Origin: Terriglobia bacterium
Lineage (GTDB): Bacteria; Acidobacteriota; Terriglobia; JAJPHL01; JAPKYU01
Assembly (NCBI GenBank): GCA_965206645.1
Contig: CBDBKE010000003.1
Coordinates: 204,425 to 268,424 of the forward strand
Direction: 5' to 3'
Length of the DNA stretch: 64,000 nucleotides
This document shows positions 28,801 to 45,510 of this stretch, one piece after another. Position 1 is the stretch's first letter, and every line of letters starts with the position of its first letter. The translations under genes were made by a program, and so were the position numbers. Below the pieces are notes generated by a model. That model did no database searches, had not been told where the DNA came from, and was given only the letters and a program-made list of their open reading frames with translations.

Positions 28801-28830
28801 TTGACAGGGGCCGGCGCGGGCACCGACAAT
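28801..28830 (+). promoter_or_regulatory. candidate sigma70-type promoter TTGACA-18-GACAAT for the wzm operon
   Basis: Perfect -35 hexamer 47 nt upstream of the wzm ATG. The -10 is weak. Confidence 0.3.
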
Positions 28831-28853
28831 AAGCCGACAGGCCGGAAGCCGCG

Positions 28854-29675
28854 ATGAATGTGGGGTTTTTCTGGACAGTAGGGCGCGCGTTTGTGTCCAA
28901 CCTGGTGCAGCGGCGTGCACTGGTGGGCAACCTAGTCGTCCGCGATTTCAAGCAGCGCTACGTGGGTTCCTCGATCGGGTGGCTGTGGGGAGCGGTACAC
29001 CCGGCGGTTCTGCTGCTCAGCTACTGGTTCGTCTTCTCGAAGGTGTTCAAGGTCCCTCTGCGCCCCGAGTTGGGCACCGACAGCTTTGCTCTCTACCTGT
29101 TCGTGGGCATTCTGCCCTGGCTGTTGTTCCAGGACACCGTGCAGCGCTCGGCTACTGCCGTGATGGGCTACTCGAACCTGATTACCAAGACCATGTTCCC
29201 CTCCGAGGTGCTGCCCCTCTCGCTGTTGCTTTCCGGCATGCTGAACCACCTGCTGGGTCTGCTGGTGCTCTTGGGAATTCTGGGCCTGGTGGTCAAAAAG
29301 CTGACGGTGTTTGCGCTGCTGGTGCCGGTCTACACCCTTTTGCTGGCAGTGTTCACCATCGGCGTGAGCTGGCTGGTGGCCAGTCTGAACGTGTTTCTGC
29401 GGGATACGGCGCAGGCACTCTCGGTCGGGCTGATCTTCTGGTTCTGGTTCACGCCGATTTTCTACGCCGCCGACCGCCTGCCAGAAAACGCGCGGTTTAT
29501 CGCCTGGATCAATCCGCTGGCCTACGTGGTGGACGCCTACCGGAAGTGCCTGCTGGCCGGCCAGGCGCCGGCACTGGGCGACCTGGCGATTACCGCCGTC
29601 TTTGCTGTCACCGCTTTCGTGGCCGGCGGCCTGTTCTTCCGCTACACCAAGCGCGCCTTCGGAGATGTGCTCTGA
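28854..29675 (+). CDS. wzm: ABC-2 type polysaccharide export permease
   Basis: Six predicted TM helices. Its stop overlaps the wzt ATG (TGATG). Confidence 0.85.
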   Translation: MNVGFFWTVGRAFVSNLVQRRALVGNLVVRDFKQRYVGSSIGWLWGAVHPAVLLLSYWFVFSKVFKVPLRPELGTDSFALYLFVGILPWLLFQDTVQRSATAVMGYSNLITKTMFPSEVLPLSLLLSGMLNHLLGLLVLLGILGLVVKKLTVFALLVPVYTLLLAVFTIGVSWLVASLNVFLRDTAQALSVGLIFWFWFTPIFYAADRLPENARFIAWINPLAYVVDAYRKCLLAGQAPALGDLAITAVFAVTAFVAGGLFFRYTKRAFGDVL

Positions 29676-30991
29676 TGGGCGCGGCCGTAGTGTTGGAGAA
29701 TGTTAGCAAGAGCTACCCGGTCTATTCGGCGCCCGCCCACCGGTTGAAGGAGCTGTTGACCCTGGGGCGCCGCAGCTACCATCAGGACTTCTGGGCACTG
29801 CGGGACGTCAGTTTCGAGATCGAGCGCGGCACCACCTTCAGTATCCTGGGCGAGAACGGCGCCGGGAAGAGCACTCTGCTGCAACTGGTCGCCGGCATCC
29901 TGCGGCCCACCGCCGGCCGGATTGAAGTCAACGGGCGCGTTTCGGCGCTGCTGGAACTGGGCTCCGGGTTCAACCCCGAATTCACCGGGCGCGAGAACGT
30001 GTTCCTGAACGGCGCGATCCTGGGCCTGAGCAACAAGGAGATCGAGCGGCGCTACCCGGCGATCGTGGATTTTGCTGAAATCGGCGACTTTGTCCGCCAG
30101 CCGGTCAAGACCTATTCCAGCGGCATGGTGGTGCGGCTGGCGTTCGCTGTGGCTATCAACGTGGACCCGGAGATTCTGCTGGTGGACGAGGCCCTGGCGG
30201 TGGGCGACATCTACTTCCGGCAGCGGTGCATGCGTAAGATCCACCAGCTGCAACGCTCCGGCGTCACGGTCATCTTCGTCACCCACAGCGTGGCCGACGT
30301 CAAGAGCCTGGCCACCCGAGCGCTGTGGATCGCCGGGGGGCGCCTCGTCGAGATCGGCGATCCGGACCGCGTCGTCAGCCACTACCAGGCGGCGATGGTC
30401 AATAAGGACGCCGAATACCTGCGGCATCACGCGGTGGCAGAGGCCAAAGCCACCGAGCAGACCTCCGCGCTGCGTGCCCCTGAGGTCGTCGAGAAAATTC
30501 CCAATGTGGATTTCCGCTATGGGACCGGCAGCGCTCACGTGTTGGGCATTGCAGTCCTGAACCAGAGAGGCGAGGAACTGGGCCTGCTGCCACCGGGCGG
30601 AACCGTTGTGGTGCGCATCAGCGTGCAGGCTGCGCGGGAGGTGCCGCTGCCCATCGTCGGCTTCATGCTGCGGAACCACCTGGGCGTGGATTTTTCCGGC
30701 ACCAACACGGCCCTCGAAGACACCGAGCTGCCCCCACTCAATCCAGGCGACACGCTGACCGTGGATTTCCACCTGAGCCTGCCGGAACTGTATCCGGGGC
30801 ATTTCTCCTTCTCGCCGGCGATTGCCAACGGCGCGCTGGAAGGCTACGAGATGTGCGACTGGATTGACAATGCCGTCACGCTCCAGATGGAGAAGCGGCG
30901 GGAGATGTACGGCTACTTGCGCCCGGCCTGTCGGGTCGAAGTCCACGGCGTTCGGCTGGTGGCTGGAGTGGGAGTCCAGGGGAGAGGGTAG
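29675..30991 (+). CDS. wzt: polysaccharide ABC transporter ATP-binding protein with a ~190-aa C-terminal extension (putative glycan-binding domain)
   Basis: Walker A GENGAGKST and signature YSSGM. The C-terminal extension is consistent with a Wzt carbohydrate-binding module. Confidence 0.8.
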   Translation: MGAAVVLENVSKSYPVYSAPAHRLKELLTLGRRSYHQDFWALRDVSFEIERGTTFSILGENGAGKSTLLQLVAGILRPTAGRIEVNGRVSALLELGSGFNPEFTGRENVFLNGAILGLSNKEIERRYPAIVDFAEIGDFVRQPVKTYSSGMVVRLAFAVAINVDPEILLVDEALAVGDIYFRQRCMRKIHQLQRSGVTVIFVTHSVADVKSLATRALWIAGGRLVEIGDPDRVVSHYQAAMVNKDAEYLRHHAVAEAKATEQTSALRAPEVVEKIPNVDFRYGTGSAHVLGIAVLNQRGEELGLLPPGGTVVVRISVQAAREVPLPIVGFMLRNHLGVDFSGTNTALEDTELPPLNPGDTLTVDFHLSLPELYPGHFSFSPAIANGALEGYEMCDWIDNAVTLQMEKRREMYGYLRPACRVEVHGVRLVAGVGVQGRG

Positions 30992-43784: not shown

Positions 43785-44758
43785 ACCATGCCGCCTCCTG
43801 CCCCTTGTGTGGGGCCGAGCAGCCGCGCCTTCGCTACCGATGTTCCGACCGCCTGTTTCGCACTACCAGCGAGCAATTCCATGTGGTCGAGTGCGGTGCC
43901 TGCCGTGTTCTTTACCTGTCACCGCGGCCATCCGCCGAGGAACTGGCGCGGTACTACCCTGAGGGCTATTGGTGGGGCGCGAGCCGGCAAGGAGGCATCG
44001 CCCGGCGGATTGAAGGCCTCTACCGTGGCGCGGTGCTGCGCGACCATGTGGCCTTTGTCACCCGGGCCGTGGGTCCGCCCCCGGCGAGAATCCCGCCCAC
44101 ACGTATCCTCCCCGCCCGTATCCTGGATGTCGGCTGCGGCACGGGAGACCTGATGGCCGCCTTGCGGCAGCGCGGGTATTCTTGCATGGGGATGGACCAT
44201 TCCCTGGCAGCGCTGGCGGCAGCGCAGGCCCAGGGCGTGCCTGCGCTGCTCGGCGACTACCATGCCGCCCCGCTGGCGCCGGAAAGCTTCGACGCAGTGA
44301 CCATGTTTCATTTCTTGGAGCACGTGCCCGACCCGGGCTGCGCGTTACGATTTGCTCATCGGCTCCTGCGACCGTCCGGACGGCTCATCGTGCAGGTGCC
44401 CAACGCCGCAAGCTGGCAATCCGCTGCGCTGGGGGCACGCTGGAGCGGGCTGGACGTGCCGAGGCACCTGGTGGACTTCCGCCAGTGCGACCTGGAGCGA
44501 TTGGTCGAGCAGGCTGGATTCCGGATCGGCAGCGCAAAACACTTCTCCCTGCGGGACAATCCTGCCGCGCTGGCCACCAGCCTGGCGCCGGGCCTGGATC
44601 CGATGGGACGGCTGGTCCGGCGCAAAGAAGGCGTAGGACAGCGGCTGGCGCTGGATCTGGCCTACTTCGCGCTGGTGATGGCTGCCCTTCCCTGGGCCGT
44701 CGCCGAGGCCGTGGTCGGGCGCGGCGCTACAATCATGTTGGATGCCCAGAAGTACTAA
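43781..44758 (+). CDS. class I SAM-dependent methyltransferase with N-terminal CxxC...CxxC zinc ribbon
   Basis: CPLCG...CGAC followed by motif I ILDVGCGTGD. ATGA overlap with the upstream gene. Confidence 0.75.
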   Translation: MNHAASCPLCGAEQPRLRYRCSDRLFRTTSEQFHVVECGACRVLYLSPRPSAEELARYYPEGYWWGASRQGGIARRIEGLYRGAVLRDHVAFVTRAVGPPPARIPPTRILPARILDVGCGTGDLMAALRQRGYSCMGMDHSLAALAAAQAQGVPALLGDYHAAPLAPESFDAVTMFHFLEHVPDPGCALRFAHRLLRPSGRLIVQVPNAASWQSAALGARWSGLDVPRHLVDFRQCDLERLVEQAGFRIGSAKHFSLRDNPAALATSLAPGLDPMGRLVRRKEGVGQRLALDLAYFALVMAALPWAVAEAVVGRGATIMLDAQKY

Positions 44759-44793
44759 CCAGGCATGTTGGATGCCCAGAAGTGCTAGACCCG
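44734..44793 (+). repeat. 30-bp tandem duplication CATGTTGGATGCCCAGAAGT(A/G)CTA(A/G)CC spanning the junction of two methyltransferase genes
   Basis: Copy 1 (44734-44763) and copy 2 (44764-44793) differ at about 3 positions. Confidence 0.85.
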
Positions 44794-45510
44794 CGCGTGC
44801 GTCGAGCCGCTGAGCGCCTCCTGCCCCGCTTCTTACTGCGCGCCCTGGACCCCTTTGAGAGCCGCGCCGAGGAGGCGCTTGCCGCCTTCGCGGCGTCGCT
44901 TCCGGCAGATTCCTGGGTGCTCGATGCGGGCGCGGGCCAGTGCCGTTATGCGCCACTGTTTGCCCGCCACCGTTACGTGGCAATGGACAATGCCGTTGGA
45001 GACCCTTCCTGGGACTATTCGCGCCTCCACCTGCTTGGGGACCTGGAGCAGTTGCCGCTGGCGACGGCATCTTTCGATGCCGCCATCAGCGTGGTCGTGC
45101 TCGAACACACGCGGGAGCCGCAGCGCGTGCTGCGCGAGGCCGCGCGCGTACTACGCCCGGGCGGGCGGCTGCTGTTGGTAGTGCCCCAGGAATGGGAAGT
45201 GCACCAGGCTCCCCACGACTACTTCCGCTTCACACGCTACGGGGTGGAGTACCTGCTGGAGTGCGCGGGCTTGCGGGTGCGGAAATTGGAAGCGGTGGGC
45301 GGTTTCTTCTGGCTGGTGGCCCGTCGCTCGGTGAACCTGCTCAGTTTCTTTCAGGGCGGGCTAAAGTGGTCGCTGTTCGTGCTGCTGGCACCGCTCTTCG
45401 GCTTCTTGATTCCCCTGCTGCTCTATTTCTGTGACCCGCTGGACCGCCAGCGCGACTTCACCCTCGGCTACATCTGCGAAGCCGAGAAGGCCCCTGCCCC
45501 ACCTCAGTAG
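44782..45510 (+). CDS. class I SAM-dependent methyltransferase (Methyltransf_11-like)
   Basis: Motif I VLDAGAGQC. The start is uncertain: GTG at 44782, inside the duplicated 30-mer, is the first plausible start. Confidence 0.7.
   Translation: MLDPRVRRAAERLLPRFLLRALDPFESRAEEALAAFAASLPADSWVLDAGAGQCRYAPLFARHRYVAMDNAVGDPSWDYSRLHLLGDLEQLPLATASFDAAISVVVLEHTREPQRVLREAARVLRPGGRLLLVVPQEWEVHQAPHDYFRFTRYGVEYLLECAGLRVRKLEAVGGFFWLVARRSVNLLSFFQGGLKWSLFVLLAPLFGFLIPLLLYFCDPLDRQRDFTLGYICEAEKAPAPPQ

Follow-up and report, generated by a model that had tools for sequence, protein, structure and literature searches.

A predicted chain terminator with a coiled coil of variable length in an ABC-transporter-dependent glycan locus of a Terriglobia bacterium

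A coiled-coil protein bearing a chain terminator is the characteristic marker of a widespread terminator strategy, reported for several glycan classes, in which the coiled coil's length sets that of the chain and, in the systems studied, the carbohydrate-binding domain (CBD) of the ATP-binding cassette (ABC) transporter ATPase Wzt requires the terminal modification (PMC11231755). Here we describe a locus in a 64,000-nucleotide stretch of DNA from a Terriglobia bacterium (a soil bacterium of the Acidobacteriota; NCBI GenBank assembly GCA_965206645.1, contig CBDBKE010000003.1, positions 204,425 to 268,424 of the forward strand), called the window in what follows, whose numbering is used for all its coordinates. 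The locus appears to use the known coiled-coil terminator strategy of the E. coli O8 and O9a WbdD proteins, of Klebsiella O7 and O12 and of the P. syringae TET operon. What is new here is that, as judged from related assemblies, the putative coiled-coil ruler of its candidate terminator, g3, grows and shrinks by in-frame tandem duplications, even between strains that are 99.8% identical.

With the methyltransferase-only WbdD systems of E. coli O8 and Klebsiella O5 the locus shares the gene order wzm-wzt-terminator-polymerase (wzm-wzt-wbdD-wbdA in the E. coli O8 cluster) and the 1-nt overlap of the wzm stop with the wzt ATG. The g3 protein resembles WbdD(O8) in the order of its parts, with a class I methyltransferase at the N-terminus, then a helical region and finally a basic C-terminus, in the absence of a kinase and in being accompanied by a homologous Wzt CBD. 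Unlike WbdD(O8), however, g3 shows no sequence similarity outside the core that binds S-adenosylmethionine (SAM), its helix is much longer and perfectly heptad, and it stops about 25 residues past the helix, where WbdD(O8) continues for a further C-terminal region of about 100 residues. The candidate polymerase, g5, carries glycosyltransferase (GT) domains of families GT2 and GT4 and its own membrane anchor, in contrast to the soluble multi-GT4 mannosyltransferase of E. coli O8, and there are no mannose-pathway genes here. In E. coli O9a and Klebsiella O3, WbdD combines a kinase and a methyltransferase on a trimeric coiled-coil ruler (PDB 4AZS, 4AX8, 4UW0); g3 differs from it in lacking the kinase.

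Terminator and polymerase are linked via a coiled coil in Klebsiella pneumoniae O7 ORF6 (methyltransferase-kinase-carbohydrate-binding module (CBM)-coiled coil-GT2-GT2) and O12 WbbB, and a single polypeptide of this kind exists among Pseudoxanthomonas homologues of the proteins described here. In the window, by contrast, the two are separate and there is no kinase. An immunoglobulin (Ig)-like domain, a putative CBM, lies between the catalytic part and the coiled coil in O7 ORF6 (PMC11231755), and a second methyltransferase of the locus, g4, has an Ig-like beta-sandwich at the same position, which matches no Pfam CBM in sequence. The CPA (common polysaccharide antigen) TET operon in P. syringae, comprising wzm, wzt, a wbdD-like O-methyltransferase and a wbdA-like bifunctional GT, follows the same four-gene logic and order (PMC7820976); in some strains its methyltransferase and GT are fused, and the operon is highly strain-variable, with differing ranges of lipopolysaccharide (LPS) length (PMC7820976). 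It differs from the present locus in phylum and in GT families, and repeat-driven variation of a coiled coil is not described for it in PMC7820976, where the word "coiled" is absent.

Wzt, g3 and g5

Genes were called between 27.9 and 45.5 kb by open reading frame (ORF) calling guided by GC content at third codon positions (GC3), combined with Pfam. Those on which the argument rests are the following:

28854-29675, plus strand: wzm, ABC-2 permease of 273 aa (PF01061, ABC2_membrane, 64 bits; hydrophobic segments)
29675-30991, plus strand: wzt, ATPase with C-terminal CBD (about residues 270-438), 438 aa (ABC_tran and Wzt_C)
30998-32404, plus strand: g3, methyltransferase with coiled coil and basic amphipathic tail, 468 aa, candidate chain terminator (Methyltransf_11/25, AlphaFold model)
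31910-32265, plus strand: tandem duplication in the g3 coiled coil, 168 bp (TRF, repeat search, protein-level repeat)
32232-32404, plus strand: g3 tail module, made up of the last part of the coiled coil and GSRWYRAGKKFRLSPVPPSDQ; repeated directly in the g4 tail
32591 (ATG, 461 aa) or 32528 (GTG) to 33976, plus strand: g4, methyltransferase with Ig-like beta-sandwich, helix and g3-type tail (Pfam, AlphaFold model)
33973-36396, plus strand: g5, N-terminal membrane anchor with GT2 and GT4, 807 aa, candidate polymerase (Pfam; hydrophobic residues 1-38)

An earlier note on this DNA, made from its letters and ORF translations, had found the C-terminal extension of Wzt to be of the same size as the glycan-cap-binding module in E. 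coli O8/O9a Wzt. Past the ATPase domain (PF00005, 80 bits), the extension of about 190 aa is indeed a genuine Wzt_C domain (residues 281-415; PF14524, 91 bits, cut-off 30.4). The solved full-length Aquifex Wzt (8DKU/7K2T) could be aligned with ATPase and CBD alike, and the extension also aligned to the CBD of E. coli O8 Wzt. The best PDB matches were O-antigen Wzt proteins, and identity to the Wzt of the E. coli O8 cluster (strain IAI1) was 35% over 399 residues (E 4e-87). Pfam analysis of all 15 locus ORFs revealed, besides the transporter, GT2 and GT4 proteins, methyltransferases and one AhpC-like protein, with no Wzx flippase or Wzy polymerase. By these homologies, this is an ABC-transporter-dependent glycan locus whose Wzt has a bona fide CBD homologous to that of E. 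coli O8 Wzt.

The same note had described the protein encoded next to Wzt as a methyltransferase joined to a coiled coil and an amphipathic basic tail, and the analysis of g3 bears this out. Pfam placed Methyltransf_11/25 at residues 64-177. An AlphaFold (AF2) model of the monomer, obtained with an alignment of 45 homologues (mean predicted local distance difference test score, pLDDT, of 79), had at residues 1-268 a class I methyltransferase bearing a small lid, then a single unbroken helix (271-441) and a short helix (444-452), with pLDDT values above 90 over the first ~100 residues of the long helix. The hydrophobicity spectrum of this 171-residue helix peaked at exactly 3.5 residues (z = 12.2, 0/500 shuffles), the register in sevens showed no break, and the span of the helix would be about 25 nm at 0.1485 nm per residue. 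At its far end lies an amphipathic segment of 11 residues, GSRWYRAGKKF (442-452; hydrophobic moment, muH, of 0.77), followed by a Pro-rich end, the net charge over the last 40 residues being +4. Across Bryobacterales, Solibacteraceae and other Acidobacteriota the tail keeps the motif SRW-x-[RK]-LG-[RK]-x3-L-x-P. With the methyltransferase head at one end of the helix and the amphipathic tail at the other, g3 fits the layout of a coiled-coil terminator.

A match of this first methyltransferase to WbdD, also put forward earlier, held for architecture and gene position but not for descent. Similarity to the WbdD(O8) of IAI1 (425 aa) was limited to the SAM-binding core (35% over 107 aa; 120 columns in hhalign), WbdD did not appear among the top 60 matches of g3 to PDB sequences or its top 50 in Foldseek, and it ranked only 19 among generic methyltransferases. 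As the comparison with the E. coli IAI1 O8 cluster matched only the generic methyltransferase core, membership of g3 in the WbdD family was rejected. A kinase domain was found in neither g3 nor g4, by Pfam or in the AF2 models, and O8-type WbdD also lacks one. On sequence grounds, g3 is an analogue of WbdD and not an orthologue. The closest structure to both g3 and g4 was CgnL. Grouping with small-molecule methyltransferases is not a valid argument against a terminator, because the terminator methyltransferase of Klebsiella O7, which is experimentally proven, is also closest to CgnL (PMC11231755). The end of the WbdD(O8) helix, "...LHNSRSWRITQPLRWL" (L087 14457-15734, IAI1), loosely resembles the "ENKVSWARSLE" repeats and the "GSRWYRAGKKFRL" tail of g3, over a length too short for homology.

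The gene order was examined in one genome per species, giving 55 loci with a g3-type methyltransferase and lid. Wzt, with ATPase and CBD, was encoded directly upstream of the g3 homologue in 49 of the 53 loci with enough upstream sequence, and a g5-type GT2/GT4 protein directly downstream in 48/50. Nearly all of these loci belong to Acidobacteriota (~50 species), the closest being metagenome-assembled genomes (MAGs) named "Terriglobia bacterium", with 85-99% protein identity. In two genomes of Pseudoxanthomonas, a member of another phylum, g3 and g5 form one protein of 1096-1152 aa (L056 10001-13288, L058 10001-13456), whose methyltransferase-helix-GT2-GT4 layout is that of the Klebsiella O7/O12 terminator-polymerases. 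Given the conserved adjacency, the Pseudoxanthomonas fusion and the logic of the TET operon, it is therefore likely that g5 is the polymerase and g3 its terminator.

We consider it probable that these genes specify an ABC-transporter-dependent route to a lipid-linked glycan of the cell surface, which is most likely an LPS O-polysaccharide and whose length would be set by a capping enzyme on a coiled-coil ruler; that g3 is this ruler-borne terminator, working with the Wzt CBD, appears equally probable. In such a pathway a phosphoglycosyltransferase encoded elsewhere would prime undecaprenyl phosphate, and g11, together with some of the GT2 enzymes, would build the adaptor, after which the membrane-anchored dual GT2+GT4 protein g5 would polymerise the repeat, of whatever sugars it may consist. 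The g3 protein would be held at the membrane via its basic amphipathic tail, or docked on g5, with its methyltransferase head about 25 nm off on a parallel coiled coil of presumed oligomeric state. On reaching the head, the non-reducing end of the chain would be methylated and growth would stop. The C-terminal domain of Wzt would recognise the capped end, and Wzm/Wzt would export the glycan towards its presumed final acceptor.

In-frame variation of the g3 coiled coil

The coiled coil of g3 contains a near-perfect tandem duplication with a unit of 168 bp (56 aa, 8 heptads), present in 2.1 copies that are 99% identical and covering protein residues 305-423. A related contig, L084, is 99.8% identical to window positions 20998-42404 (21.6 kb), with zero alignment gaps in the flanks, and its sole structural difference consists of 234 extra bp (78 residues), which add two copies of another unit, 39 residues long, to this g3 helix. 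Among relatives whose methyltransferase domains are 64-89% identical, g3 varies from 398 to 546 aa and carries independent near-exact duplications with periods of 28, 42, 56, 58 and 86 residues. Such duplications were detected in 19 of the 120 listed cluster representatives, every one inside the coiled coil and in frame, and their periods were multiples of 7 in 15 cases out of 20 (binomial P = 1.6e-9). Between the conserved NVLRER motif and the tail motif, close relatives had a span of 99-247 residues, and the family as a whole one of 92-321. These length data all come from metagenome assemblies. In the literature searched, the coverage of which was incomplete so that a prior description is possible, we found no description of natural repeat variation in glycan rulers.

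Changes in ruler length should shift the modal chain length. The coiled-coil ruler model is based on insertions and deletions that were engineered into a handful of enterobacterial proteins, and the present locus constitutes a natural experiment: in a large and environmentally abundant phylum, one conserved terminator family has undergone repeated, recent, in-frame changes of its putative ruler, and the spans of 99 to 247 residues provide a ready-made allelic series for the model. If chain length tracks these changes, ruler length would be an evolvable trait under diversifying pressure. Acidobacterial surface glycans are almost unstudied.

The chimeric methyltransferase g4 and rival explanations

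The start of g4 at the ATG at 32591 is probably the real one, and the homologues begin at MRRDW. In its AF2 model (pLDDT 85), residues 1-214 form a methyltransferase, 225-346 a beta-sandwich of eight strands and 358-445 a helix of 88 residues. Matches to g3 comprise the SAM core (~30%) and the last ~100 residues, of which the final 40 are nearly identical; at the DNA level, the tail modules at 32232-32404 and 33804-33976 are 75% identical over 173 bp. Members of the g4 family are mostly ~350 aa long and have no helix, and one such homologue without a coiled coil is encoded just upstream of wzm in a more distant relative. The beta-sandwich gave no significant match in Pfam, either as the domain alone or with 20 homologues, or in a profile search against PDB sequences. 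A profile search of 1.84 billion representatives retrieved 353 proteins. In a PMT_2 (GT-C) enzyme and in a further methyltransferase among them the domain lies at the C-terminus, and others matched Big_3_5 Ig-like repeats in part, which gives the sandwich a remote link to Big_3_5 and to glycan enzymes.

Among the related genomes, L003, L004, L084 and L085 carry the gene and L001, L002/L006 and L005 lack it, with the boundaries of the deletion inside the tail repeat. In genomes without g4, g3 directly adjoins g5, and in L002 the g3 stop overlaps the g5 start as the g4 stop does in the window. In L085 (g3 10001-11587, g4 11774-13159) the last ~60 residues of g3 show a similarity of 0.82 to the g4 of that genome and a lower one, 0.70-0.77, to the tails of orthologous g3 proteins, which suggests sequence exchange between the tail modules of the two genes. 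For these reasons the two genes are not, as had been claimed, paralogous terminators: g4 belongs to another methyltransferase family, carries a beta-sandwich and a helix with z = 1.1 for the heptad signal, and has only its last ~100 residues in common with g3. Its description as a methyltransferase/coiled-coil protein applies to the methyltransferase and the predicted long helix, but the heptad signal of that helix is not significant. On its domain composition, g4 is an accessory chimeric terminator-like enzyme and not a paralogue of g3.

On this reading, g4 has acquired the membrane-proximal helix and tail of g3 on a shorter stalk (~13 nm), and it would probably dock at the same site, adding a second modification or length class. 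That g4 is a functional second terminator or modifier is a possibility that we hold only tentatively. As such it would be a second case of a terminator-type protein that bears an Ig-like or CBM-like domain, and it suggests a route for new modifying enzymes, which could plug in via a short docking module. Rather more speculative, and in our judgement doubtful, is a broader proposal in which the ruler acts as a hypervariable length dial. Unequal recombination of 28-residue-periodic units would change it in steps of ~4-12 nm, so that near-clonal strains would differ in modal glycan length, for example in evasion of phages or predators; in some strains g4, having captured the docking tail of g3 and with an Ig-like glycan-binding domain on a half-length stalk, would add a second tier (~13 and 25 nm), with either a cap that is doubly modified or two length classes as the outcome. 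The literature searched contained no two-tier or hypervariable arrangement of this kind.

Several observations weigh against the proposed ruler-borne terminator and its pathway. The C-terminal region of ~100 residues with which WbdD binds the membrane and recruits its polymerase is missing from g3, and as the candidate polymerase here is itself membrane-anchored, the geometry may not be that of WbdD. Five of the 20 duplication periods are not multiples of 7, and as the g3 sequence is already 28-residue periodic, recombination alone could yield multiples of 7 or 28 without selection. The g4 helix contains a proline in addition to its weak heptad signal, and the Wzt CBD is ~95% similar among relatives both with and without g4, so that g4 may not alter the exported cap (no clear pattern linked CBD sequence to g4 presence, with too few genomes). 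The locus itself holds no initiating transferase, ligase or nucleotide-sugar genes, and the related organisms are all uncultured MAGs. Part of this would fit a role of g3 as an assembly scaffold or as a methyltransferase of internal residues, with chain length resulting from enzyme stoichiometry or kinetics and the coiled-coil changes being neutral slippage: the intrinsic periodicity favours unequal recombination, the heptad phase is broken by the five irregular periods, the methyltransferase domain is not specifically similar to any proven terminator, and two further methyltransferases, g13 and g14, could supply the cap. We regard this as quite unlikely, as g3 lies beside a Wzt whose CBD type requires a terminal modification in studied systems (PMC11231755), and does so in 49/53 loci, the duplications are all in frame and restricted to the helix, and the catalytic head lies at the end away from the membrane tail or polymerase, an arrangement common to all characterised rulers, the fused Pseudoxanthomonas form included. 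Collapsed or expanded repeats in the metagenome assemblies could also have produced length differences, since some contigs have low coverage, judged from record names such as "3x", and repeats of 84-258 bp are of a size that short-read assemblers can mis-resolve. This is very improbable as an explanation: the repeat units are different and independent, all in frame and found across many assemblies from separate samples, the flanks are colinear with zero gaps, and the repeats are restricted to one functional region of one gene.

As regards g4, it may be an irrelevant or decaying chimeric insertion, which arose when a soluble methyltransferase gene recombined with the 3' end of g3, instead of a second terminator. 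The absence of g4 from close relatives with boundaries inside the tail repeat, the poor heptad character and proline of its helix, a scrambled g4 tail in L003, the lack of a coiled coil in most family members and a Wzt CBD not visibly different between genomes with and without g4 would all agree with this; yet at least four related genomes have the ORF intact, with 87-94% conservation, the g4 stop overlaps the g5 start, placing the gene for co-translation, the AF2 model is confident, and the coiled-coil-less homologue beside wzm in a more distant relative indicates a long-standing link to the pathway. A mere insertion therefore appears unlikely. Somewhat less so is the possibility that the capping and export logic proposed for g3 and Wzt serves another ABC-exported glycan, such as an S-layer or glycoprotein glycan or a capsule- or exopolysaccharide-like polymer, although we still consider this improbable relative to an O-polysaccharide. 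Neither O-antigen ligase nor core or lipid A genes were found among the Pfam-scanned window ORFs, the terminator/CBM strategy is known for several glycan classes, and g7 is similar to the polyprenyl-phosphate hexose synthases that serve in protein or teichoic-acid glycosylation. Of the solved and characterised Wzt proteins, on the other hand, those closest to this one are O-antigen exporters. Acidobacteriota are diderms with LPS, and in E. coli the ligase and the initiating enzyme are likewise encoded away from the O-antigen locus.

Gene layout, glycosyltransferases and neighbouring genes

Fifteen plus-strand genes lie between 27.9 and 45.5 kb. The features around and downstream of those given above are:

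27871-28704, plus strand: upstream gene for an inositol-monophosphatase-family protein
28801-28830, plus strand: promoter-like site TTGACA-18-GACAAT 5' of wzm (consensus match only, 10/12)
36393-37004, plus strand: g6, AhpC/TSA/Redoxin-family protein with signal peptide, 203 aa (PF00578, 69 bits; hydrophobic N-terminus)
37025-37699, plus strand: g7, short GT2, 224 aa (Pfam)
37696-38838, plus strand: g8, GT2 (Pfam)
38835-39782, plus strand: g9, GT2 (Pfam)
39783-40841, plus strand: g10, GT2 (Pfam)
40877-41986, plus strand: g11, GT4 with DUF1972, 369 aa, candidate adaptor transferase with the lipid-linked primer as its substrate (Pfam)
41987-42722: spacer between g11 and g12, 736 bp, GC 55%
42047-42283, minus strand: small ORF in the spacer, 78 aa (no Pfam match)
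42280-42519, minus strand: small ORF in the spacer, 79 aa (no Pfam match)
42674-42703, plus strand: promoter-like site 5' of g12, inside the sole conserved part of the spacer (promoter-like hexamers)
42723-43784, plus strand: g12, GT2 (Pfam)
43781-44758, plus strand: g13, Zn-ribbon with methyltransferase and C-terminal hydrophobic segment (Pfam, hydrophobicity)
44782-45510, plus strand: g14, methyltransferase with C-terminal hydrophobic segment (Pfam, hydrophobicity)
45573-46835, minus strand: convergent tetratricopeptide repeat (TPR) gene, closing the region

The inventory given in the earlier note, with wzm and wzt followed by two methyltransferase proteins with long C-terminal helices, GTs and two more methyltransferases, was essentially right. 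Its count of about eight GTs corresponds to seven proteins with eight GT domains, beside four methyltransferases, of which g13 and g14 are tail-anchored, but it overlooked the AhpC/TSA-like g6 and the spacer. Its statements that nearly all genes are joined by overlaps and that they form one operon did not hold. Overlapping or abutting junctions are found at wzm/wzt (1 nt), g4/g5 (4 nt), g7/g8 (4 nt), g9/g10 (0 nt) and g12/g13 (4 nt), and at g5/g6 and g8/g9 only if the upstream start is used (-4 or +14 nt for g8/g9); the later starts of these two were picked by the gene caller on the 99.8%-identical contig. The total is thus 4-7 of 13 junctions, with other gaps of 6-35 nt and a g3/g4 gap of 123-186 nt, depending on the start.

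The two minus-strand ORFs of the spacer overlap by 4 nt and are also called in L084. Relatives carry different cargo at this site (a ParE toxin, DUF2442 or a 171-aa ORF), and the 160 nt at the 3' end of the spacer are the sole part kept in them, being 80-84% identical in L002 and L003. Because of this differing cargo the locus is not one operon: we read it as two transcription units, split at the 736-bp spacer, with promoter-like sites 5' of both wzm and g12. No remnant of the relatives' 171-aa ORF was detected in the window, an Rfam scan of 27.0-47.5 kb gave one sub-threshold chance match and no RNA element in the spacer, and a terminator scan gave nothing above shuffle expectation. The small ORFs are outside the glycan pathway; with them, the spacer has the appearance of a variable islet, possibly with a toxin-antitoxin-like pair.

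The glycan had earlier been predicted to be of the polymannan type, which we rejected as unsupported. No man, gmd or rml sets (mannose, GDP-rhamnose, dTDP-rhamnose) were found beside the locus, and the GTs are mainly GT2, with no set of GT4 mannosyltransferases. No NCBIfam model scored above its cut-off for any GT or methyltransferase of the locus. The best sub-threshold match of g11 was Cps2T beta-1,4-rhamnosyltransferase (153 bits, cut-off 500), and those of g7, which is 66-72% identical in many Bryobacterales loci, were AglJ/dolichyl-P-hexose transferase. The AhpC/TSA protein g6, with a signal peptide and an ATG overlapping the g5 stop, lies inside the glycan operon; it is kept in close relatives and absent from more distant loci. 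At 1068-3424, 27 kb upstream, an RmlD-substrate-binding-family reductase is encoded next to a DegT/DnrJ-family aminotransferase; both are genes of nucleotide-sugar modification, with an uncertain link to the glycan locus and too distant to inform the sugar composition.

Elsewhere in the window, a ChlI N-domain ORF (12237-12701) and a Mg_chelatase ORF (12638-13762) lie in different frames and are pieces of a normally single ComM/YifB-type gene, pointing to a frameshift or a sequencing error. Insertion-sequence genes are present at 7352-8560 (rve-family integrase) and 59054-60430 (DDE_Tnp_1_4 transposase).

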